A program made the position numbers and the translations under genes. DNA of 35,414 bases. It comes from Candidatus Zixiibacteriota bacterium (GTDB taxonomy: Bacteria; Zixibacteria; MSB-5A5; SM1-73). Below the pieces are notes generated by a model that was given only the letters and a program-made list of their open reading frames with translations, had not been told where the DNA came from and searched no databases. The stretch is taken from assembly GCA_020341875.1 (NCBI GenBank), contig CP070839.1, forward strand, positions 2,253,300 through 2,288,713. Direction: 5' to 3'. This document shows positions 4,417 to 16,455 of the stretch, one piece after another. How positions within the stretch are numbered: the stretch's first letter is position 1; each line of letters begins with the position of its first letter.

Positions 4417-4959
4417 TCAACAGGCCGGCGGGTCCCCACCTCTATAGAGATAGTTGACCAGGTAGACCACATCTCCCACGTTTACTATCCCGTCGCACGT
4501 GATGTCGCCTGCCTCTAACGGTACAGGTTCTTCTCCGCTTCTGTACAGGTAGTTCACCAGGAAGACTACGTCACCAACGTTGATTATCCCGTCTCCGTTG
4601 ACATCGCCGCGGTCGACCTGCGTCGTATATACGTACCCCGCCTTCGCGCCCCAGCTGGTACTCGCGGAAAGGCCGGCGGGCGACGGCTGCCCGCCGGAGT
4701 TGACTGGAATCCTGTAGCTATCCGACTCCGATTTGCCGCCGAAGCCGCTAATGGCATCCGTCACAAGCCGGTAGCCTTGCTTTGAATCACCCAAAGGGGC
4801 CTTTTGCGGACTACTCCCCTTTGCTGCGCTAATCACAGTTTGGGTCTTTGGCTGTGAATTGGCAGACTGGATCTTGCGGTCGGATCCCGCGTACGCAAGC
4901 AGGACCACCGTCAGAGCCACGACCCCCAGGACAGCCGTTATGAATATCGTCTTTTTCAT
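4417..4959 (-). CDS. Small secreted protein with C-terminal double dockerin (paralog 1)
   Basis: Signal peptide MKKTIFITAVLGVVALTVVLLAYA. Conserved module GYRLVTD..GFGG.SESD.YRIPVNSGGQPS. Two dockerin-type repeats, GDVNGDGIINVGDVVFLVNYLYRSG and GDITCDGIVNVGDVVYLVNYLYRGG. AAGGAG SD. Confidence 0.85.
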   Translation of the reverse strand: MKKTIFITAVLGVVALTVVLLAYAGSDRKIQSANSQPKTQTVISAAKGSSPQKAPLGDSKQGYRLVTDAISGFGGKSESDSYRIPVNSGGQPSPAGLSASTSWGAKAGYVYTTQVDRGDVNGDGIINVGDVVFLVNYLYRSGEEPVPLEAGDITCDGIVNVGDVVYLVNYLYRGGDPPAC

Positions 4960-6626: not shown

Positions 6627-8567
6627 TTACTGTAGGGTTACCAGGACCAATATCTGTCCCTTTTTGCCCTTTTCCAGCCTTTGCATCGCCTTGCCTAATA
6701 TCGAGCCCTGGGCACGTGCATAATCTGTAACCTTCATAGCATAGCCGGGTGTGGCAGATGTGGTCAAGAGGTCGCCGGGCTGGACTCCTGCTTCTTTGGC
6801 ATCCACGTTGCAGTAGACCCGACCTGCCAGAGCCACGTCAAAGTCGAATTGATCTGCGCCCAGACGCACGCCTGACCCCTGACCGTTTGCTCCGGCCACA
6901 ATGCCTGCAACCTTTTTGTCGTACGGTTGGTCTGAGATCGCCAGTTTACCGGGATTGTCCGGATCGATGATCAAGACTGACCCAGGATCTATCTTCTTGT
7001 CATTGGACACGTCAAATCCCTCGGCGTAATCAAGACCTTCACCCAATTCCATAACCGTGGTTCCACTGTTGTTTCGAATTAGGACTCTACCCCACAAGTC
7101 CGCTGAGTAGCAATCCCCATAGGCTCGGGCCCTAATGCCCGCACCACCGGTCGTATGGCAATCTGCGTACACACCAAAATTCTCGTCACCAAGCACCCCA
7201 GAGTTACCTGTCGCAGGATGGGTGCCGACGATGGCCTGAGTTGGCGACTGGCCATACACGCCGCAAACACTCCCGTACCCGCGGATACCTATGGCACCCT
7301 CACCATAGATAGCAGCGTCAGACACACCATCACCGCCAACACTCAGTCTTGATTGAGGGTTGGTCGTCCCGATGCCGACGTTATCGTTGTTAATCGTAAT
7401 CCCATGACCTGAAGCGTTAGTGATGTCGAACTGGTTCTGCATAGAACTGATGTCATAAACTGACATGTTGCCGCGCACATCCAGCTTCTCTGCGGGGCTG
7501 GTCGTCCCGATGCCCACGTTGCCCGAATCATCAAGATACATCAGAGTAGGGTTCACGCCTTGGTCACTGTCTGTCCCGTACGTTACCCGAAGTCCTTTGC
7601 CACCTCCAGCCGTCTCACGGAGGATGCCCCACTTATCCGCCAGAACTCCAGCTGTTATCTCTCCAAATGTAATTCCGGATCCGAGAGTGCCGCCCTCGTA
7701 GCTGTAAAGCCCGACTATCGCATCATTGTTCTCAACGATAAGCACGTCTGCCGCGAGTGCATCAGGCGACAAGGAGACAGTTGATTCCTGAATGTGCTGC
7801 TTGGACAAAGGTGCCTCCGTCCCGATGCCGACATTGCTCGCACCATGTGTATAGATGGTGCCGTCCTGTTTCACGCTGAGGCGCCCCGTTCCCTGCGTTT
7901 CCAAGATGACGTTACCAGCGCCGGTCGGTGCCGCCACTTTGATGTGACCATTACCGTCTTGAGAGATTTTGCCTGCGGCCGTGTTGGGCGCGCTCAGAAG
8001 CTCGACTCTGGCCCAGTCACCTGCCACCCGTATCCTGTCGTTGACCTCAAGATTCGCCTCGGGGCTGGTGGTCCCGATCCCAACCTGATCTGTATCTGTC
8101 TCCAACCTCACCACACTGCCATCATCCACCCAGCCGCCGCCTCCCCCGGCGCCGTCCGTGCTGCCCGCCCGGTAAGCGTAGGGAACACTCACCATAGGCT
8201 TGAGCGGCGCCATCTCCGGGTCCGATTCCACCTGGACACCAAGGTACTTGACGTTCCCGTCAAACACTGCCGAGGGTATCGTATCTGCTGCCCCCAGGAG
8301 AACATTGAATATCCCGTCTTCCACAATCACCTGCATCTGGGTTTCGCTCCAGTCCGCGGGTGAGCCCAGCGTATCTGGATAAATAGAAAAAGTCATCTGC
8401 ACCGTGTCGTTCACCAGACCTCCTCCGGCATCAGTCAACTTGCCCTGATAATTGATCATGTGGGGGACATCAGCAGATGCGAGAGGGGCGAAGAAAAAGA
8501 CCATCATCCCCGCCAGCACAAAAACAAAGCTTTTGCGAGCAGACGCTCGCCCGTCTGGTCGTGCCAT
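6627..8567 (-). CDS. Secreted tail-fibre-like repeat protein, paralog A
   Basis: Start moved to ATG 8567 (GAAAGGAG SD; MARPDG...SFVFVLAGMMVFFFAPLASA signal). The N-terminal domain DVP.(M/S)INYQGKLT...WSETQ...GIFNVLLG...KYLGVQVE.DPEM.PLKPMV is shared with B and C. Repeated (N/D/Q)VGIGT(T/E).P....L.V motifs are typical of phage-tail-fibre-like proteins. Distinct C-terminal domain (GLDYAEGFDVS...VAGIV...GDLLTTS.TPGYAMK). Confidence 0.85.
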   Translation of the reverse strand: MARPDGRASARKSFVFVLAGMMVFFFAPLASADVPHMINYQGKLTDAGGGLVNDTVQMTFSIYPDTLGSPADWSETQMQVIVEDGIFNVLLGAADTIPSAVFDGNVKYLGVQVESDPEMAPLKPMVSVPYAYRAGSTDGAGGGGGWVDDGSVVRLETDTDQVGIGTTSPEANLEVNDRIRVAGDWARVELLSAPNTAAGKISQDGNGHIKVAAPTGAGNVILETQGTGRLSVKQDGTIYTHGASNVGIGTEAPLSKQHIQESTVSLSPDALAADVLIVENNDAIVGLYSYEGGTLGSGITFGEITAGVLADKWGILRETAGGGKGLRVTYGTDSDQGVNPTLMYLDDSGNVGIGTTSPAEKLDVRGNMSVYDISSMQNQFDITNASGHGITINNDNVGIGTTNPQSRLSVGGDGVSDAAIYGEGAIGIRGYGSVCGVYGQSPTQAIVGTHPATGNSGVLGDENFGVYADCHTTGGAGIRARAYGDCYSADLWGRVLIRNNSGTTVMELGEGLDYAEGFDVSNDKKIDPGSVLIIDPDNPGKLAISDQPYDKKVAGIVAGANGQGSGVRLGADQFDFDVALAGRVYCNVDAKEAGVQPGDLLTTSATPGYAMKVTDYARAQGSILGKAMQRLEKGKKGQILVLVTLQ

Positions 8568-8914
8568 GACGTAGCTCCTTTCTTTAGGACAAAGGTTAGC
8601 CTCCTGCAAAAAAAACATAGCCCCTTTTAGGAAGTCGTTAGCGGTTACTGTGCAGCTTCCACCTCCTTGAAAAGAGTTTTTGCAGTAAAGATCAACGTCT
8701 CAAATAAAATCCCTGCTGCGTGCGTCCAGCGCAAAGACACCCATTCGCTGTCCTGCCTCATCAGCGCAACAAGACAGGCTGACACAAACACAAGATTTCC
8801 TGGTAGTAGTTCTGCCTACAATGTCATCCCCAACGGTGCCCCGCAAAAGACTTCCGGCAAGTCATGGCGAAGCCGACAGAGCCTAAGCTACGTCACCGCA
8901 CAAGCATTGATCGC
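8568..8914 (-). promoter_or_regulatory. Conserved long 5' leader, copy 1 (upstream of fibre A)
   Basis: Shares ordered blocks with the other two leaders. On the RNA strand these are GGCT(C/T)CGCCAT(T/G)ACTTGCCGGAAG, TTGGGGATGACATTGTA(G/A)G(C/G)AGAACTACT (8805-8833), AAGGAGGTGGAA, GACTT(C/T)C..AAAAGGGGC and GGCTAAC. Confidence 0.5.
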
Positions 8915-8920
8915 ATTGGG

Positions 8921-8948
8921 AATATACACTATCAACCGACGAAGTCAA
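8921..8948 (-). promoter_or_regulatory. Sigma70-like promoter of cassette 1
   Basis: Minus strand reads TTGACT (8948-8943), 16-nt spacer, TATATT (8926-8921). The same hexamers and spacing occur in all three cassettes. Confidence 0.6.
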
Positions 8949-9134: not shown

Positions 9135-9674
9135 TCAACAGGCCGGTGGGTCTCCTCCTCGGTACAGATAGTTGACCAGATAAACTATGTCGGCCACGTT
9201 CACCACGCAATCACTGGTGGCATCTCCGGCCTCCGGTGGGCAGGGCTCTGATCCTCCCCTGTAGAGATAGTTCACCAGATACACGATGTCAGCCACGTTG
9301 ATCAATCCGTCGCCGGTGGCATCGCCGCGCTTCACGTGAGAAGCGTGCACAAAACCGGCTCCTATCCCCCAGGTGGCGCTCTCCGAGAGACCGGCAGGTG
9401 AGGGTTGACCTCCGGAGTTGACCGGAATCCTGTAGTTATCCGACTCAGATTCCCCTCCAAAGCCGTCCAGGACGTCGGTCACCATCACGTATCCCTGCCG
9501 AGTGTCTGTGAATTGCGCCCTCTGCTGAACGCCGGTGGGCGATGGCTTCACTTGAGTTACCGCATTCTGCTTGACTCTCTTCGGTTGAACCTGCTTATTC
9601 GACTCAGCATGCACCGTCACTGCCAGTAGCACCGCCACCACCAGGAGTACCGTTCCGAATTTGATCTTATTCAT
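9135..9674 (-). CDS. Small secreted protein with C-terminal double dockerin (paralog 2)
   Basis: Start moved to ATG 9674 (AAGGAG SD; MNKIKFGTVLLVVAVLLAVTVHA signal). Same GY.MVTDVLDGFGGESESDNYRIPVNSGGQPS module and two dockerin repeats, ending YLYRGGDPPAC. Confidence 0.85.
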   Translation of the reverse strand: MNKIKFGTVLLVVAVLLAVTVHAESNKQVQPKRVKQNAVTQVKPSPTGVQQRAQFTDTRQGYVMVTDVLDGFGGESESDNYRIPVNSGGQPSPAGLSESATWGIGAGFVHASHVKRGDATGDGLINVADIVYLVNYLYRGGSEPCPPEAGDATSDCVVNVADIVYLVNYLYRGGDPPAC

Positions 9675-9768
9675 TTTTGTCTCTCCTTTTTTGAGGCGCT
9701 GTCTTTCATCCACGTGGTCAAGGACCCGGCGGATGGTTTGACCGCGCACTCAAATGTCACGTGATGGC

Positions 9769-12267
9769 TTATTCGCCTGCTTTTTCCAGCCGTTCCTTCT
9801 CCATCCTTGCGGCGGCTTCGGGATACAGGTATGCGTCGTTCTCTCCAGCAGCGGTGTAGTCAAGGCGCCTGTCCTCAAATCCCTTGCGCTTGGCTACCAC
9901 ACGGTAGGAAAACGGGACATTAGTCGTGCCGTTCTTCAACTCCACAACATCAAACCCGGTAGTCCCCTTGGAAACATACACGCCGTTACAGTCGCCCTCG
10001 AGCTGCACGAACACCTTCATGGGGTTTGCAGCGTTTATGGTTACGGTCTCCAGAAACAGAGCATCCAGCTCTATGTGTGTTTGGCCATTTACCAGCGTTC
10101 CTTCGCCGAAATCCTCAAACCAGTTTTCAGGCGATTCCTGGCAATAGAGAAGCGTCGGTCCCTGGGAGGTCTTTACCACACAGCTTTTGGTGCCGGACCC
10201 TCCCAACCCGCCTGAGTAATAGACGCCATAGTTGGTGGTTCCGCCGCTGGCATAACCCCTTACACCGTAGTTGGAGCCCGAGCCGGTAGCATTACCGGAT
10301 ACACCGTACTTGTTACCTCCTGCCCCACTGGTAGTAGCATAACCATAAACTCCGTAATAGGTCGAGGTTCCAGTTGCAATAACGCGGGCATAAACGCCCT
10401 GGTAGCCGCCTTCAAAATATCCACCAATCCCGTAGTAATCTTGGGGAGTGGACTTCCCATAAACTGCTCTGGCATCTTGGCTAGAAGTCCCGGTGTGTTC
10501 AGAACGCAGCACGTAGAAATCTGTTGACTCAACGTCAAGTTGTGCGTCCGGGCTTGTGTCCCCGATACCGACGTCTCCGTCGGTGGCAACGGTTACCGAT
10601 GCAACGCCTCCATCTTCGTTCAGGGAAAGGGCGCCGTTGTCAACCAGGGTTACCCTTGCGGTTCCTCCAGCATCCTTGATGTCGGCTCCTCTGACTCTTA
10701 TATCTCCGTTTACGTCCAGCTTATCCGCTGCGGTCACTCCTATGCCCGCGTTACCGTCAACAATTAAGTGGTCCGTGCCGGGATCAGAGGTTCCACCAAC
10801 ATGAAATCCTCCTAAGGCATAGCCATAATCAGAAATATAAACTCTGTTGAAAGTCGGGTTGTCAGTTGTCTGAACGTTCTGGTTCATGGCGTAGAGTTCA
10901 TTAGGCCCTTGGCCTGTGTTTACTGTGGCAAAAGTGACAGCGTCACTTGTCCGAACGTTCTGGTTCATGTCATAGAGTTCATTAGGCCCTTGGCCTGTGT
11001 TTACTGTGGCAAAAGTGACAGCGTCACTTGTCCGAACGTTCTGGTTCATGGCGAAAAGCTCATTATTCCCATAGCCTGTGTTAATGACGTTTGCGCTAAC
11101 GTCCCCAAAAGACACGTTGTCGGTTGTCCGAACGTGCTGGTTCATGGCGTAGTGCTCAAAATTCCCCTGTCCTGTGTTAACTGTGTTCGCATAAAAGTCG
11201 CCGCCCACATGAAGCTTATAACCAGGGGTGGTTATCCCGATGCCAACTTGGCCGCCGTCCTCAATCACCATCCTGGAACCGATCCCGGTTTCCGAGAAAT
11301 GCAGTGCAATACCTTGATAGTGTACCTGCCATTCGGAGCCTCCTGTGTCACGAAAGTCCAGAGCGTAACTCTGTGATGAGCCGCTTCCTTCGAGGGCGAT
11401 GTTTCCCAGAACTCCTAACTTCTGACTTGGGCCCGTTGTGCCGATGCCGATATCACTGCCGCTTTGATAGATTGTCGAATTGCCAACGGTGGTTGGGGCT
11501 GTGAATTTGGGGATGTAATTGGCTGTGCCGCTTCCTCCGATTCCACCGGCCGTGGAGGAAAAGGTCACGGTATTGGCTCCGTCATTTGGCGTTATGGTCA
11601 TATTGCTACCAGGAACGAAGTCGACATTTCCACCCGCGTTGCTCACACCGTCCACGCTCACCAAGGCACCCGTTTGCCCGGCGCTAACCGAGTGCGGATT
11701 GTCTGACCTGGCTGAGTGGGTCTCTCCAATGCTTATGTTGTCGGCTCCATCATTGGGGGTGATGGTGATGGCATTAGTCTGGATCAGGTCCACATTTCCG
11801 CCCGGATTAGAAACGCCGTCCACGCTCGCTATTCCCGCTGCGGGCACGTTTCTGGCGTAGTCTGCGGTATCCGCCTCCTGTGCGTGATGTGAACCGAACG
11901 CGTAGGCCGTCGTCACCATCGGCTTCAGGGGGCTCATCTCCGGATCGGTCTCCACCTGAACACCCAAGTATTTGGCGGTTCCATCAAAGATCGAAGCTGG
12001 CAATGGATTAACACTTCCCAAAAGAACATTGAATATGCCCTCTTTCACCTCCACTTGTGTTTGGGTCTCACTCCAGTCCAACACGGTGCCGAATGCGTCT
12101 GCGTAAATGGTGAAGGTCATCTGAACCGTGTCGTTAAGACAGCCACCTGAAGCGGTGGTCAGCTTACCCTGATAATTGATACTGTCGGGGACGTCAGCAG
12201 ATGAAACAGAGGCAAAGAAGAAGATCACCATCCCCACGGCCAGAAAAACGAGGCTCTTGCGCGCCAT
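9769..12267 (-). CDS. Secreted tail-fibre-like repeat protein, paralog B
   Basis: Signal MARKSLVFLAVGMVIFFFASVSSA and the shared N-terminal domain. GIGTT.P..KL motifs, internal 27-aa tandem repeats and YG(V/I).G Gly/Tyr-rich repeats. The C-terminal domain ESPE.WFEDFGEG...FSYR.VAKRKG.ED is shared with C. Confidence 0.88.
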   Translation of the reverse strand: MARKSLVFLAVGMVIFFFASVSSADVPDSINYQGKLTTASGGCLNDTVQMTFTIYADAFGTVLDWSETQTQVEVKEGIFNVLLGSVNPLPASIFDGTAKYLGVQVETDPEMSPLKPMVTTAYAFGSHHAQEADTADYARNVPAAGIASVDGVSNPGGNVDLIQTNAITITPNDGADNISIGETHSARSDNPHSVSAGQTGALVSVDGVSNAGGNVDFVPGSNMTITPNDGANTVTFSSTAGGIGGSGTANYIPKFTAPTTVGNSTIYQSGSDIGIGTTGPSQKLGVLGNIALEGSGSSQSYALDFRDTGGSEWQVHYQGIALHFSETGIGSRMVIEDGGQVGIGITTPGYKLHVGGDFYANTVNTGQGNFEHYAMNQHVRTTDNVSFGDVSANVINTGYGNNELFAMNQNVRTSDAVTFATVNTGQGPNELYDMNQNVRTSDAVTFATVNTGQGPNELYAMNQNVQTTDNPTFNRVYISDYGYALGGFHVGGTSDPGTDHLIVDGNAGIGVTAADKLDVNGDIRVRGADIKDAGGTARVTLVDNGALSLNEDGGVASVTVATDGDVGIGDTSPDAQLDVESTDFYVLRSEHTGTSSQDARAVYGKSTPQDYYGIGGYFEGGYQGVYARVIATGTSTYYGVYGYATTSGAGGNKYGVSGNATGSGSNYGVRGYASGGTTNYGVYYSGGLGGSGTKSCVVKTSQGPTLLYCQESPENWFEDFGEGTLVNGQTHIELDALFLETVTINAANPMKVFVQLEGDCNGVYVSKGTTGFDVVELKNGTTNVPFSYRVVAKRKGFEDRRLDYTAAGENDAYLYPEAAARMEKERLEKAGE
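10866..11195 (-). repeat. In-frame tandem repeat inside fibre B (81-nt unit, 4 copies, first two nearly identical)
   Basis: TTGTC(T/C)GAACGTTCTGGTTCATG... recurs at 10866, 10947 and 11028 (period 81 nt) and at 11124 (96-nt spacing). It encodes NTGQGPNELY(A/D)MNQNVRTSDAVTFATV units. Confidence 0.85.
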
Positions 12268-12646
12268 CGTGTACCTCCATACGTTAGAAAAACGTTAGCC
12301 CCTTTCTGTGAGCAAAACATGCCCCTTTTGAGAAGTCATTGGCGGTTGTTCTTTCTGCTTCACCTCCTTGTTAAAAATTCAAATCTAACAGTAGACGATA
12401 TGAATGAATTTCCGCCTATGTGCTTGGAGCGCGAAGCGACCCATCGCACGCACTGCCTGGTTCTCCCAGCAGCGCAGGCTGGCGCAAACACAATATCACA
12501 TGATAGTAGTTCTCCTTACAATGTCATCCCCAATCGTACCCCAGACAAGGCTTCCGGCAAGTAATGGCGGAGCCTTCCAAGCGTAATCTACCTCGCGAAG
12601 ACAAACAGCCTCTTTCAAATGCCGAACGGGCACAAATGCCGACTGT
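12268..12646 (-). promoter_or_regulatory. Conserved long 5' leader, copy 2 (upstream of fibre B)
   Basis: Same ordered blocks as copies 1 and 3. Positions 12546-12592 are identical to 15601-15647 over 47 nt. The three-way block lies at 12505-12533. Confidence 0.5.
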
Positions 12647-12652
12647 ATCAGG

Positions 12653-12680
12653 AATATACATTATCGACTGAAAAAGTCAA
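12653..12680 (-). promoter_or_regulatory. Sigma70-like promoter of cassette 2
   Basis: TTGACT (12680-12675), 16-nt spacer, TATATT (12658-12653) on the minus strand. Confidence 0.6.
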
Positions 12681-12859: not shown

Positions 12860-13402
12860 TCAACAGGCCGGTGGGTCTCCTCCTCTGTAGAGATAATTGA
12901 CCAGGTAAACTACATCTCCCACGTTCACTATCCCATCGCTGGTCACGTCGCCGGCCTCGGCCGGACAAGGTTCACCTCCGCTTCTGTACAGATAATTCAC
13001 CAGATAGACTACGTCGCCAATATTGATTATGCCGTCGGCGTTGACATCTCCCCGGGTAACCCGAGTTGCCAGGACGTAGCCCGCTCCGACGCCCCAGTTG
13101 GCGCTCTCCGAAAGACCAATGGCTGATGGCTGCCCTCCGGAGTTTACCGGAATCCGGTAATTATCCGATTCCGATTCTCCTCCGAAGCCATCAAGGACAT
13201 CCGTTACGAGCTGATACCCTTGCTTTGAACCAGTGAACGGGGTAGTCTGCGGAAGACCGGCGGCCATCGATTTGATTTCAGCGACCTCCTTTGGCTTGAC
13301 CATCTTAGACCGCACTTCCTTGTTTGACTGAGCATGCACCACAAGCACCGCAGAGAACACCAGAGCCACAAGGAATATGATTCCTAATTTGATCCTATTC
13401 AT
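12860..13402 (-). CDS. Small secreted protein with C-terminal double dockerin (paralog 3)
   Basis: Start moved to ATG 13402 (MNRIKLGIIFLVALVFSAVLVVHA signal). Same conserved module and two dockerin repeats, ending YLYRGGDPPAC. Confidence 0.85.
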   Translation of the reverse strand: MNRIKLGIIFLVALVFSAVLVVHAQSNKEVRSKMVKPKEVAEIKSMAAGLPQTTPFTGSKQGYQLVTDVLDGFGGESESDNYRIPVNSGGQPSAIGLSESANWGVGAGYVLATRVTRGDVNADGIINIGDVVYLVNYLYRSGGEPCPAEAGDVTSDGIVNVGDVVYLVNYLYRGGDPPAC

Positions 13403-13468: not shown

Positions 13469-15322
13469 CTACCTCTGTTCTCTCTCCTGTTCCATCCTCT
13501 TGTTCTCTGCCTCCATCTTCTCGCGCTGCCTTTTCATCTCTTGTCTTTGTTCTTCCAGCTTGGCCCACTCCTCTTCCGTCTCTGCCCGATGTCTTGCCTG
13601 CTGCCAAGCTACTTCCTCGGGCGTAGGTTTCCCCATCTTGGCTAACCGGATATCCTCGTATCCTTTTCTTTTGGCAACGATACGATATGAGAAGGGGACG
13701 TTTGCACTTGAAGGACCTATCACCTCAAAGGTGGCAGTGGTCTTATTCGCCACGGCCAAGGTTAGTGGTTCATCCTGCGGAGTCAGAAAAACATGATATT
13801 TCACTGAGGTGTTTACGGTCTGAGCGAATAATGGATCAATCTGAATTACTGCGCTCCCATTTAGTAGTCGTCCTTCTCCGAAATCCTCAAACCAGACCTC
13901 TGGCGATTCCTGCGAGTAAAGCAGGCGGTATTCACCATTATCCACCTTCACTGCCGCGCTCTTTCCGCCTAGGACCACCAGACTGTCAGTTATCCTGACA
14001 TCGCCGCCAAAATACCCCGCCCATCCGTAGGCAGCATTTGCGGATGCATAGACACCGTATCTTGTACCCGTCCCGGTAGCACCGCCAAAGGAATCGAAAT
14101 ATCCACCATAAACAGATCCGGTAGAACGATTTGAGGCAAGAACGTGTATGCCGCGGGTAGGCCCAGCGCTGGAATCCGGTACCGAAATGTCAACTCCCGT
14201 TCGCGCTCCTGTCCCAACATATGATGGAGGTGTGTAAAACGATGCGGCGACCGACCGGCCAGATGAGCTGTTGCTCGCTTCAGCGTGGATACCATACGTG
14301 TGAGCAGAGGAGGTACCATAACCCTCAGCCCATACCCCAACAGGGCCTCCTGTCCCATCAGAAGAGGCTTGAAAGAATCCCCCTTTGGGGTACCCTGTGG
14401 AGGAATTGCTGGCATAGCCATAGACTCCGTAATGCCAGCCACTGGAGGAGCTGTAACTTCTAGCGTTTACGCCATAATGCGTTCCTGTGCCTGAAGCTGC
14501 GGCAGAAAAATACCCTGCGCAAACGTCCCCATCTGAACTATTTTCCGCTCTGCCATAAACACCGTAAGTATTTGCATTGGAAGAAGCGCTACCTGATGCT
14601 CGGATTCCGTAGTGAGTTCCTGTGCCTGAAGAGGGAGTCTCAAAATACCCCCCGTAAGCAACTCCAGTGGAAGTGTTCTCTCCATAACCCTTAATACCAT
14701 AGATTGCTGAACTGCTTCCGGTTGCTTTGCCCAAGAGAGCCGCGCCAGAGGCGGAAACAACACTGTCGGGTCCAGTGACATTCACGTATTTGTCGGTCAG
14801 AGTGCTCGTTCCCTCATACAAATCCGTCGCCACACCGGAGCGACCATAATCGTTAGCAGTCGAAAGAAAAGCCGACGCATGCTGTCCATCTAACAAGTCC
14901 GCATTCTCTGCGCTCCAGGCAAAATCGGCGGTATCTGCCTCATTCGACTTGTAAGCGTAAGCCGTGGTCACCATCGGCTTCAAAGGCGTCATCTCCGGAT
15001 CGGATTCCACCTGAACGCCCAAATACTTGGCAGCACCATCGAAGATCGAAGCCGGTAACGGATTAACACTTCCTAAAAGAACGTTGAATATCCCCTCTTT
15101 CACCTCCACTGCTGTTTGGGTCTCACTCCACTCCGACACGGTGCCGGATTCGTCGGTATAGATTGTAAAGGTCATCTGAACAGTGTCGTTGACACAACCA
15201 CCGCTGGCGGTGGTCAGCTTACCCTGATAATTGATACTGTCGGGGACGTCTGCAGATGAGACAGGGCAAAGAAGGAAAATTACCGCCCCCATCACCAGAA
15301 GCACAAAACTCTTGCGTAGCAT
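13469..15322 (-). CDS. Secreted tail-fibre-like repeat protein, paralog C
   Basis: Start moved to ATG 15322 (GAAAGGAG SD; MLRKSFVLLVMGAVIFLLCPVSSA signal). Shared N-terminal domain, with a 44-nt run at 15207-15250 identical to 12152-12195. LDGQHASAF fibre-type motif. Gly/Ser/Tyr-rich repeats (GTGTHYG..A...SS). Shared C-terminal domain plus a Glu/Arg/Lys-rich tail likely to form a coiled coil. Confidence 0.85.
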   Translation of the reverse strand: MLRKSFVLLVMGAVIFLLCPVSSADVPDSINYQGKLTTASGGCVNDTVQMTFTIYTDESGTVSEWSETQTAVEVKEGIFNVLLGSVNPLPASIFDGAAKYLGVQVESDPEMTPLKPMVTTAYAYKSNEADTADFAWSAENADLLDGQHASAFLSTANDYGRSGVATDLYEGTSTLTDKYVNVTGPDSVVSASGAALLGKATGSSSAIYGIKGYGENTSTGVAYGGYFETPSSGTGTHYGIRASGSASSNANTYGVYGRAENSSDGDVCAGYFSAAASGTGTHYGVNARSYSSSSGWHYGVYGYASNSSTGYPKGGFFQASSDGTGGPVGVWAEGYGTSSAHTYGIHAEASNSSSGRSVAASFYTPPSYVGTGARTGVDISVPDSSAGPTRGIHVLASNRSTGSVYGGYFDSFGGATGTGTRYGVYASANAAYGWAGYFGGDVRITDSLVVLGGKSAAVKVDNGEYRLLYSQESPEVWFEDFGEGRLLNGSAVIQIDPLFAQTVNTSVKYHVFLTPQDEPLTLAVANKTTATFEVIGPSSANVPFSYRIVAKRKGYEDIRLAKMGKPTPEEVAWQQARHRAETEEEWAKLEEQRQEMKRQREKMEAENKRMEQEREQR

Positions 15323-15702
15323 CACGCAACTCCTTTCGTTGGAAAAAACGTTAGCCCCATCTGTGAGCAAGACAGGCCCCCTCTTGAGAAGTCATCAGCA
15401 ATTGTTTTGTGTTTTCCACCTCCTTAGCCAAGGTTTGAATCTCAGAGTTAACGACATAAGTGAATATCCGCCCATGTGCGTCAAACGTGGAGACACGAGT
15501 CCGCTTTCCCGCATCGTTCCGGCAACGAAACAGGTGAACGCAAACGCGAAATCACGTGTCAGTAGTTCTGCCTACAATGTCATCCCCAACTTTGCCCCAG
15601 GCAAGGCTTCCGGCAAGTAATGGCGGAGCCTTCCAAGCGTAATCTACCGTGCGAAGACAAACAGCCTCTTTCAAATGTCAAACGGCCACAAATGCCTATT
15701 GT
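15323..15702 (-). promoter_or_regulatory. Conserved long 5' leader, copy 3 (upstream of fibre C)
   Basis: Same ordered blocks as copies 1 and 2. The three-way block lies at 15561-15589. Confidence 0.5.
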
Positions 15703-15708
15703 GTCAGG

Positions 15709-15736
15709 AATATACATTATCGAGTGAGAAAGTCAA
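15709..15736 (-). promoter_or_regulatory. Sigma70-like promoter of cassette 3
   Basis: TTGACT (15736-15731), 16-nt spacer, TATATT (15714-15709) on the minus strand. An 8-bp hairpin AAGAACGG/CCGTTCTT (15752-15771) lies just upstream. Confidence 0.6.
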
Positions 15737-15864
15737 GGTCTATCTTTGATCAAGAACGGATACCCGTTCTTCTGCAGAACATTTTAGCGGGAGCCTGAAG
15801 GCAGTTGGGTGTACCGAACAACGGCCAATCAACAAACCTGCCACAAGGGAACCATCTTGCCATT

Positions 15865-15930
15865 TTCAATGATCAAGGGAGAAAAGTCGGATTTCTCCAG
15901 CCCGACTTCAGGTTCACGCGGACAAGATAG
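15865..15930 (+). pseudogene. Remnant copy of the last 21 codons plus stop of the asparaginase-like gene
   Basis: Hand alignment of 15865-15930 against 4234-4299 gives 58 of 66 identical positions with no gaps. FNDQGRKVGFLQPDFRFTRTR* aligns with FNHQGKKVGFLRPDFRLKRVR*, and the stop codon is at the same position. No upstream coding continuation. Confidence 0.7.
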
Positions 15931-16009
15931 TTCTCTGCTCGACTTGTAGTCTCGAGTCGCTATTCTCTCGCCTCAAGAAGTCGAACACCAACGTCAGTTT
16001 CGCTTGGAC

Positions 16010-16136
16010 GAATCTGCGACTTCGGCTTGACCGAAAGCTCTCTCTCGCTTGATTGCACAAGGGGGAGAGAAGGACAGTACTTCATCACAGTCCCCCCAGG
16101 GGCGAGCACTCTATTTTGCGACTTTTCAAGAATAGG
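16010..16136 (+). repeat. Left copy of an imperfect direct repeat flanking the rSAM locus
   Basis: GAATCTGCGACTTCGGCTTGACCGAAAGCT... followed about 100 nt later by GGCGAGCACTC. Matches 19336-19460 at both ends with nearly equal internal spacing. Confidence 0.55.
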
Positions 16137-16323
16137 TAATCACCTGAGTTGAGAGGGATCGATTTTCCTCCCGAATCCCCGTCTTCCTTCCTGGTTCGGA
16201 CCTTAAAGCAAAAGAGCAGGGCCAATTTAAGCAGGGGCACAATAGCGAACCTAAAGACAAAATAGCGTCGGGTAATATACGTATGCGGGGGGATATATCA
16301 GTTGCGGGCCGGATAAAATATGC

Positions 16324-16352
16324 TTGACAAACGTGCTGTGATTCAATAGAGT
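16324..16352 (+). promoter_or_regulatory. Sigma70-like promoter of the rSAM/peptide operon
   Basis: TTGACA (16324-16329), 17-nt spacer, TAGAGT (16347-16352), about 100 nt upstream of ATG 16456. Confidence 0.55.
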
Positions 16353-16455
16353 GAGAATCGAAGATAATCTGTACAGCACTTTCGCAAGTAGGATTTCCGA
16401 TTTCGCTTGAAATGAACCTTCTCCCGGGACTCCAAGAGGGGAAGGCAGGGACATC

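Follow-up and report, generated by a model that had tools for sequence, protein, structure and literature searches.

A long, block-conserved leader with a candidate decoy ribosome-docking site upstream of fiber genes in Candidatus Zixiibacteriota

Three fiber operons share a long non-coding leader

In a stretch of 35,414 nucleotides (nt) from the genome of a Candidatus Zixiibacteriota bacterium (assembly GCA_020341875.1, contig CP070839.1, positions 2,253,300 to 2,288,713; hereafter, the window), three tandem operons for fiber-like secreted proteins are each preceded by a long non-coding leader, which is the subject of this study. All three units lie on the minus strand and are built in the same order, with a promoter, the leader, a Shine-Dalgarno (SD) sequence and ATG, a gene for a secreted protein of 617–832 amino acids (aa), a gene for a dockerin protein, and a terminator (Table 1). 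The three secreted proteins have in common an N-terminal domain of ~130 aa (motif INYQGKLT), and their sequences diverge beyond it. The N-terminus scores 25–32 bits against the NCBIfam model NF053851 (Bdello_MAT_N, for the mosaic adhesive trimer, MAT, fibers of Bdellovibrio), which is below the cut-off of 60 and indicates resemblance only, and the variable C-terminal parts match phage tail-fiber PHROGs. Because of this sub-threshold match and the tail-fiber PHROG matches, the name "fiber" is reasonable, and the genes may represent a MAT-like mosaic fiber family in Zixibacteria.

A first-pass annotation of the window had described a long non-coding stretch between promoter and fiber start in three copies, and this anatomy was borne out, with genes and leaders on the minus strand. 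A consensus scan found TTGACT-16-TATATT at all three sites, with 10 of 12 positions matching the consensus, and the promoter block CTTGACTTNNTCNNTNGATANTGTATATTCC occurs three times, whereas none is expected from shuffled sequences. Measured from the predicted transcription start sites (TSSs), the leaders would be about 350, 382, and 383 nt long in copies 1, 2, and 3. Their three-way alignment has a mean column identity of 78% and consists of ordered blocks, with one 32-nt indel, since the promoter-proximal part of copy 1 (element A) lacks 32 nt that are present in copies 2 and 3. Open reading frames (ORFs) on either strand are broken or frame-shifted between the copies and none is shared, so the leader is non-coding, and the possibility, named in the annotation as a potential refutation, that the blocks encode a conserved small protein is not borne out by any conserved ORF on either strand.

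The sequence blocks singled out in that annotation were likewise recovered. The 29-nt block TTGGGGATGACATTGTARGSAGAACTACT, here block C, has exactly three occurrences in the window (0 expected), and the 47-nt run that is identical in copies 2 and 3 (GGTAGATTAC...GGAAGCCTTG) was confirmed in the alignment. The SD-like box AAGGAGGTG lies 5′ of the ATG by 101–103 nt and of the true SD (AAAGGAG or GGAGG type) by about 90 nt in the three leaders, with no ATG, GTG, or TTG at usable spacing in any of the three copies, and GACTTC(C/T), AAAAGGGGC, and GGCTAAC boxes lie 5′ of the true SD. The last ~125 nt of the leader form what we call the core, which in copy 1 runs from a U-rich tract through the SD-like box, GACTTCC, a G-run, a U-run, and GGCTAACC to the true SD. 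We refer to the SD-like box as the decoy SD because of the interpretation developed below.

Copy 1 alone has an in-frame ATG at 8618 (minus strand) that would extend the fiber ORF by 17 codons (ORF 6627–8618). This ATG is probably unused; it is not kept in copies 2 and 3 or in relatives.

Table 1. Positions of the fiber operons, their promoters and leader parts, and other features in the window
Feature	Position	Strand	Details
Fiber gene 1	6627..8567	-	646 aa; 3′ of leader copy 1; conserved ~130-aa N-terminal domain, variable C-terminus
Fiber gene 2	9769..12267	-	832 aa; 3′ of leader copy 2
Fiber gene 3	13469..15322	-	617 aa; 3′ of leader copy 3
Copy 1 promoter	8921..8948	-	-35 TTGACT 8948-8943, 16-nt spacer, -10 TATATT 8926-8921; inferred TSS near 8914; promoter block 8949-8919
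Copy 2 promoter	12653..12680	-	TTGACT-16-TATATT; promoter block 12681-12651
Copy 3 promoter	15709..15736	-	TTGACT-16-TATATT; promoter block 15737-15707
Copy 1 element A	8844..8913	-	Promoter-proximal; holds hairpin HB (= block B), GGCTTCG 8874-8868 with CGGAAGTC 8856-8849
Copy 1 block C	8805..8833	-	29 nt; sub-lineage-specific
Copy 1 hairpin HC	8748..8777	-	CTGTCTTG pairs with CAGGACAG; sequence varies among copies, pairing kept
Copy 1 core	8568..8693	-	~125 nt; nhmmer E = 7.9e-27 with a profile that included the window copies; independent relatives also match
Copy 1 decoy SD	8660..8668	-	AAGGAGGTG; 101 nt 5′ of ATG
Copy 1 GACTTCC	8636-8630	-	
Copy 1 GGCTAACC	8601-8594	-	
Copy 1 true SD	8578-8575	-	GGAG
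Copy 1 ATG	8567-8565	-	Start at 8567
Copy 2 leader	12268..12646	-	HB 12574-12568 with 12556-12549; block C 12533-12505; HC about 12476-12449
Copy 2 leader, 3′ part		-	Decoy SD 12369-12361; GACTTC 12337-12332; true SD GGAGG 12278-12274; ATG 12267-12265 (start at 12267)
Copy 3 leader	15323..15702	-	HB 15630-15624 with 15612-15605; block C 15589-15561; HC 15534-15508
Copy 3 leader, 3′ part		-	Decoy SD 15425-15417; GACTTC 15393-15388; true SD GGAG 15333-15330; ATG 15322-15320 (start at 15322)
Promoter-like sequence in copy 2 block C	12527-12500	-	ATGACA-16-TATCAT
Dockerin protein genes	4417-4959, 9135-9677, 12860-13402	-	180-aa secreted paralogs with type I dockerin; each closes a fiber operon and is followed by a conserved terminator
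Peptidase C10 gene	5058-6620		Additional gene of operon 1
Palindrome TAGGCCCTTGGCCTG	10902-10916, 10983-10997	+	Two identical copies, 81 nt apart, in fiber gene 2
Apparently non-coding region	15738-16455		~700 nt; separates the copy 3 promoter from a divergent radical SAM gene

The SD-like box is the best-conserved short window in the core of a leader family

To place the leader among its relatives, we gathered 127 loci (79 metagenome loci and 48 loci of species-representative genomes) via the N-terminal protein domain, and two further loci from exact-protein look-ups. Because the loci were found through the protein domain, the sample is unbiased by leader sequence. Gathering homologous leaders had been proposed with the first-pass annotation, and parts of the leader do recur in relatives' genomes. 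Two parts recur in profile searches, namely the core and element A (a ~100-nt stretch next to the promoter). The core consensus reads AAACCTTTTTTC-AAGGAGGTG-GAAA...TAATTGATCGCAAGATTCC-AAAGAGGGGGA-TGTTTTGTTCAC-TGAAAGG-TTAACCTTT...GAAAGGAG-TTGCGTG-ATG, and element A, which contains block B and has ...ATGCTTTTCGGGCTTTCTTAT.A.T.GCCTGAAGTC at its 3′ end, gave nhmmer profile matches in about 20 loci. A view of block B as lineage-specific came from an over-strict pattern and was dropped once the profile searches showed its wider spread.

The closer the N-terminal domain is to that of the window, the more often the core is present. It was found 5′ of 22 of 23 genes whose N-terminal identity to the window is at least 70%, of 14 of 30 at 60–70%, of 3 of 32 at 50–60%, and of none of the 55 genes below 50%, a group that includes Zixibacteria SM23_81, SM1_73, and other phyla (some of the loci counted here duplicate one another). 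A promoter of the same type (TTGACTTTTTTGGAT...TATATTA) was found 239–451 nt 5′ of the start in homologous loci, and therefore the long leader is an inherited and kept architecture. The shortest leader (L011) consists of promoter, element A, and core only, in about 208 nt. Several paralogs per genome can carry the same leader; the window has three of them and L012/L087 has two.

One sub-lineage, made up of the window, L001, L099, L097, and L089, carries an extra ~150 nt between element A and the core, which comprises block C and a hairpin. Block C, the most conspicuous block of the first-pass annotation, was found only in this sub-lineage and is diverged in L089. Being confined to the window and four close relatives, this 29-mer is the least widely conserved part of the leader.

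Within a 28-sequence core alignment, AAGGAGGTG is the most informative 9-nt window (1.63 bits per column), followed by the true SD region (1.54 bits per column), and the other high-information columns are those of the G-run, TGTTTTGTTCAC, GAAAGG, and TTAACC. The 9 nt of AAGGAGGTG are the full complement of the 3′ end of 16S rRNA, and the sequence has only one further occurrence in the 35-kb window. The distance from box to ATG is 97–104 nt in every leader without insertions. Variants of the box remain SD-like (GGAGG, GAGGAG, GGAGA, or AGAGG) in 27 of the 28 leaders, and the exception is L085, where the box picked by the script was CAGACTATT, although TAGGAGGAG lies just downstream. A U-rich tract stands 5′ of the decoy SD and likewise 5′ of the true SD, and the organism does use SD sequences, since GGAG-type motifs precede many of the window genes. 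A ribosome-related role, as raised in the first-pass annotation, is thus plausible in that no other 9-mer of the core is conserved as well as the SD-like box, whereas the SD-sequestering helices that were part of the same proposal went unsupported when cognate and non-cognate partners were compared (see below).

A second group of fiber paralogs (L019, L022, L023, L092, L095, L096, and L098) has 60–70% N-terminal identity and the start context GGAGGTGCC(T/C)(T/C)ATGGCACGCAAC. This group is without the present leader family, and L023/L096 and L098 keep a TTGAC...TATATT-type promoter roughly 270–290 nt upstream, which may indicate a different type of long leader in the same genomes.

Conservation of the box does not depend on a mini-ORF

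No start codon at usable spacing follows the box in the window or in L001, L007, L010, L003, and L004. In about eight other loci an ATG at a spacing of 5–9 nt is followed by 1–3 codons and a stop, and this ATG position reads ACA, ATA, GCA, CTG, or AGG, or is absent, in the window copies or many relatives. Since the mini-ORF is present in some loci and absent in others, the box is kept with or without it. These observations bear on the proposal that the box drives a conserved upstream ORF, whose leader peptide would control the fiber gene. The loci with a correctly spaced mini-ORF are in its favor, as is a 22-codon frame in copies 2 and 3 that opens at a GTG within the box and closes at the TAA in GGCTAA. 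However, that GTG follows the GGAG by 0 nt, so this SD cannot serve it, the window copies and many relatives are without a usable start, and ORF length and frame vary between copies. No conserved start, frame, and stop after the SD were found in the window copies and relatives, and with the ATGs replaced as listed above, we regard a leader peptide as highly improbable.

Shared ancestry accounts for much of the similarity among the three copies

Because the three leaders belong to duplicated genes, their likeness has to be read against that of the adjacent coding sequence. Leader identity between copies is 0.59, 0.58, and 0.77, as compared with 0.48–0.49, 0.49, and 0.66 at third codon positions of the adjacent N-terminal coding sequence. 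The leader is only modestly above these values, and therefore much of the three-copy similarity reflects shared ancestry of a duplicated promoter-leader-N-terminus module. On its own, the three-copy similarity would not prove function, and signs of selection are confined to particular blocks.

A reading in which the leader has no dedicated RNA function builds on the same comparison. According to this alternative, the module was recently duplicated and gene-converted, and its blocks act in DNA as promoter, operator, roadblock, or homology for tip swapping. The duplicated unit does begin with the promoter and take in the first ~130 codons, leader identity is near that of third codon positions, and the 47-nt run identical in copies 2 and 3 resembles a conversion tract. 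In addition, block C of copy 2 contains the promoter-like ATGACA-16-TATCAT, and AAAGGTTAACCTTT is a perfect 14-bp palindrome in many homologs. In contrast, window copies 2 and 3 do not keep the palindrome, the decoy SD and the blocks near the ribosome-binding site (RBS) are kept across many genomes despite diverged neighboring positions, and one hairpin (HC) is kept by compensatory changes and by G-U pairs, which pair only in sense-strand RNA. On balance, we consider this DNA-level account unlikely.

The promoter-like sequence in block C of copy 2 came from a consensus scan. TATCAT also follows block C in L099, as judged by eye, and copies 1 and 3 have a poorer -10 part; going by these sequences, block C may be an internal promoter in some copies.

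Structure is suggested for the 5′ half of the leader but not for the core

The first-pass annotation had suggested a riboswitch-like or attenuator function and had named an Rfam scan and comparative folding as checks. Rfam gave no match at the gathering score anywhere in the window, and a permissive search gave four matches at chance level (E = 2–5), none of them in the leader. RNAalifold found no consensus structure in the conserved core (−0.6 kcal/mol with 14 sequences and 0.0 kcal/mol with 22 sequences) and none in a 16-sequence alignment of element A. Minimum free energy (MFE) z-scores of the whole leaders in the window are ordinary (−1.5, −1.0, and −0.5), and those of 15 whole leaders, computed on both strands, are unremarkable and strongly negative only in the presence of palindromic inserts resembling miniature inverted-repeat transposable elements (MITEs). 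Within the three leaders, no terminator-like site was predicted 5′ of the start codons; a site at 15329–15312 spans the ATG of copy 3. For four hand-picked helices (U-tract/decoy SD, GGAAN/NUUCC, decoy SD/CUUCC, and CUUCC/G-run), cognate partners were no more stable than non-cognate partners taken from different leaders (p = 0.07–0.8). As far as the tools used can tell, the widely conserved core is not a structured RNA. Of the earlier interpretation, what stands is that the leader is non-coding, is common to all three fiber operons, and has parts that are kept in other genomes, whereas the riboswitch and attenuator readings are not supported.

The full-length leaders gave a different picture in their 5′ half. 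With seven full-length leaders, RNAalifold predicted a structure that is paired at 89.7%, as compared with 45–48% in slid controls, and that contains 21 cells with changes on both sides versus 11.7 ± 2.4 in column shuffles, none of 500 shuffles reaching 21. The signal comes mainly from HC (helix 7, alignment A5), in which 5 of 11 pairs change on both sides and many pairs are G-U, which argues for sense-strand RNA rather than a DNA palindrome. Hairpin HB keeps its pairing via C-G to U-A changes between copy 2 and L097 (read by eye). Compensatory changes were seen in these two hairpins only, both in the 5′ half, with HC specific to the sub-lineage and HB lying in the widely conserved element A. 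As the independent lineages number about five, the evidence that structure in the 5′ half is real may be called suggestive, not conclusive.

These results also weigh on the idea of a riboregulator acting in cis (as a riboswitch, thermosensor, or attenuator), in which CUUCC and GGCUYC anti-SD boxes alternately pair with the decoy or the true SD. In the RNAalifold structure of the seven leaders, helix 10 does join GACUUC to the decoy SD, and helix 3 joins block B, through its GGCUYC, to the true SD; the complete structure surpasses its shuffles, as described above, with the compensatory pairs in HC; and many homologs have mutually exclusive pairings, AAAGG-UUAA-CCUUU and CCUUU/AAAGGAG, beside the true SD. 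However, the predicted anti-SD pairings (GACUUC/decoy and GGCUYC/true SD) show invariant positions or one-sided changes only, and the absence of an Rfam match, of a consensus fold in the core, of unusual MFE z-scores, of a difference in the cognate test, and of a predicted intrinsic terminator in the leaders 5′ of the starts all count against such a switch. Many homologs, moreover, tolerate inserts that separate the decoy from the true RBS, and hence the supposed pairing partners from each other; these are mobile palindromes of 50–190 nt and small CCGCCATAGGCGG hairpins. Therefore, a precise fold linking both sites is disfavored, and we consider a cis-acting riboregulator distinctly unlikely.

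The MITE-like palindromic inserts were seen in the leader regions of L006, L012/L087, L084, L089, L014/L088, L015–L018, L025, and L091, as well as L008, L010, L025, L038, L090, L093, and L101. At least three kinds occur: GAGAGGGTCAACGGAT...AATCCGCTGACAG; GTTTGTTGAAAAA...GGAGTGCGAAAGCTTGCTTTCGC...; and the short CCGCCATAGGCGG hairpins. They nearly always sit at one of two spots, either after CACTGAAAGG (with an apparent AAAGG duplication) or between CCTTT and the true SD.

Several other candidate elements were considered and set aside: (i) a structure obtained by RNAalifold from the three window copies, whose outer helix is broken in L001 and involves the -10 region, a probably untranscribed sequence; (ii) a weak hairpin followed by a U-tract (AUUCC/GGGAU, then GUUUUGUU) as an attenuator, which has mostly G-U stems and no covariation and was missed by the terminator scan; (iii) a peptide LAGSL.WG.(I/V)GDDIV.RTT across blocks B and C, which showed up when four leaders were translated in all six frames but is without a start codon, has stops ahead of it in copy 1, and varies in where it ends; (iv) an RfaH ops-like GGTAG motif in copies 2 and 3, which is not kept in copy 1 or in relatives; and (v) a sigma-54-like or second promoter in the core, for which no conserved -10 or -12 element was seen by eye.

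Conserved blocks as possible sites for a trans regulator

The conserved core without a conserved fold could also be explained by a binding platform for a trans-acting regulator of all fiber paralogs, either a CsrA-like protein at the GGA purine boxes or a small RNA (sRNA) pairing with the pyrimidine or purine boxes; the target would include the true SD, and translation would thereby be controlled. Conservation of primary sequence without a conserved fold is typical of protein and sRNA targets, and the same leader on several paralogs per genome would suit a shared regulator. Four core purine boxes each follow a pyrimidine tract (AAGGAGGUG, AAAGAGGGGGA, GAAAGG, and GAAAGGAG), three of them with GGA and one overlapping the true SD, and the core consensus thus contains at least two GGA motifs with one on the SD (AAGGAGG, GGGGGAU, and AAAGGAG), as expected of CsrA/RsmA targets, albeit by a weak criterion. 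However, the box matches the anti-SD over 9 nt, which is beyond the need of a CsrA site (A(N)GGA), and no arrangement of GGA in hairpin loops is conserved around the core boxes. A trans regulator is therefore, in our estimate, an unlikely explanation of the core, on a par with the DNA-level account.

Combining the two conserved parts, element A and the core could form a two-module, clade-specific RNA whose array of SD-like purine boxes and pyrimidine boxes is recognized either by the ribosome or by a trans factor of its own and which coordinates the fiber paralogs, perhaps in a mutually exclusive manner. If true, the leader would be a post-transcriptional selector of the adhesive tip displayed by the cell, but we consider this very unlikely.

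A candidate decoy ribosome-docking site

The explanation that we favor, tentatively, is a long 5′ untranslated region (UTR) with a decoy ribosome-docking site that resembles a stabilizing SD (STAB-SD). Under this hypothesis, transcription would start at a near-consensus sigma-70-type promoter 350–385 nt upstream, and the main selected element would be the U-rich tract together with the AAGGAGGUG that comes after it, at a distance of ~100 nt from the true RBS, which is the weaker site, with a start codon being possible but not obligatory. A 30S subunit, or a ribosome on the optional mini-ORF of 2–4 codons, would dock at the box and shield the downstream mRNA from 5′-end-dependent decay, and docking may also raise the local ribosome supply for the true start. 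The region 5′ of the box, with HB and HC, would then be a dispensable, trimmed, or regulatory 5′ extension, and the box would set the stable 5′ end. A STAB-SD is expected to be an SD-like box of extended complementarity to the 16S rRNA 3′ end that lies in the 5′ UTR ~100 nt or more from the start and does not serve as the RBS of a functional ORF; both features were found, the first in the window and in relatives and the second in the window copies, with no conserved ORF. The anatomy, the conserved box with its conserved spacing from the ATG, and the lack of a conserved ORF and of a conserved core fold are established here, and the TSS, ribosome binding at the box, and any effect on stability or translation are inferred.

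Several points weigh against this explanation. The predicted accessibility of the box is inconsistent among leaders (probability of being unpaired, 0.00–0.93, mean 0.33). The mean pairwise identity of the core is 0.55 versus 0.56 at third codon positions, and therefore constraint is confined to short blocks and the positions between them appear nearly free. A STAB-SD leaves element A, GAYTTCC, the G-run, TGTTTTGTTCAC, and GGTTAACC unexplained. Finally, the established examples of STAB-SD-type stabilizers come mainly from RNase J-containing Firmicutes.

Neighboring genes and other features

The homolog names place the organism in Candidatus Zixiibacteriota. Apart from the fiber operons, the window encodes a PorV-like protein and housekeeping genes (PBP1A, radical SAM enzymes, Thi4, an aconitase-family protein, and an aldolase), and the context is therefore considered chromosomal. 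The remaining features outside the leaders are listed in Table 1; of these, the repeated palindrome in fiber gene 2 matches an internal repeat of the protein (...NQNVRTSDAVTFATVNTGQGPNELY...).

Comparison with known systems

To our knowledge, this leader has not been described. It is new as a sequence family, whereas the kind of element, a long 5′ UTR with a non-initiating SD, is already known. The combination of promoter, element A, and a core with AAGGAGGTG at about −100 is a non-coding signature that marks these fiber genes in Zixibacteria metagenome-assembled genomes (MAGs), and it could help to annotate both the fiber genes and the positions at which they truly start. Nothing found here points to a new mechanism, and no new principle would follow unless the other conserved blocks bind a dedicated regulator. 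If the decoy SD works as proposed, STAB-SD-type stabilizers would extend beyond Firmicutes to an uncultured phylum of the Fibrobacterota-Chlorobiota-Bacteroidota (FCB) group, where they would drive mosaic surface fibers.

The Bdellovibrio MAT fibers (Caulton et al. 2024, PMC10769870) resemble the present system in their genes rather than in the leader, as they too are paralogs with an invariant N-terminal domain and swapped, tail-fiber-like C-terminal tips. They differ in that the Bdello_MAT_N match found here is below the cut-off and the host, represented by a Zixibacteria MAG, is not known to be a predator; when that paper was searched by term, neither promoter nor UTR turned up. With CsrA/RsmA leaders such as Bacillus subtilis hag and Escherichia coli glgC, the fiber leaders have in common several GGA purine boxes, one of them on the SD, and a surface filament as the product (flagellin in the known case), but in the fiber leaders GGA-in-loop hairpins are not conserved and the anti-SD match spans 9 nt. 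Standby sites (tisB and MS2 coat) and S1-dependent U-rich enhancers likewise place a U-rich tract and a ribosome-binding sequence without an ORF of its own 5′ of the true RBS. Standby sites, however, usually lie a few tens of nt from a structured RBS, while in the fiber leaders the distance is ~100 nt, insertions of up to about 190 nt are tolerated, and no conserved stable structure covers the true RBS.

The STAB-SD of Bacillus thuringiensis cry3Aa was reportedly described by Agaisse and Lereclus in 1996, and Sharp and Bechhofer are said to have found in 2003 that the Bacillus box is kept whether or not a mini-ORF follows. Related polypurine or strong-SD stabilizers of B. subtilis are those of the SP82 leader, hbs, aprE, and gsiB. 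The cry3Aa gene is transcribed from −558 and its transcript is processed to a stable mRNA that is protected by an SD-like box at about −125 (PMC12970973), and ribosomes at a strong SD block RNase J1 (PMC5737220). The fiber leaders differ from cry3Aa in belonging to Zixibacteria, a candidate phylum of the FCB group, and in that their box is part of a ~125-nt block-conserved core, has a second element of ~100 nt upstream, and recurs on several paralogs per genome. They are alike in having a far promoter (−558 in cry3Aa and about −350 to −385 in the fiber leaders) and, at about −100 to −125, a strong SD-like box distinct from the RBS of the protein-coding gene, whose product, in the case of the fiber, is presumed to be made in large amounts like the crystal protein.

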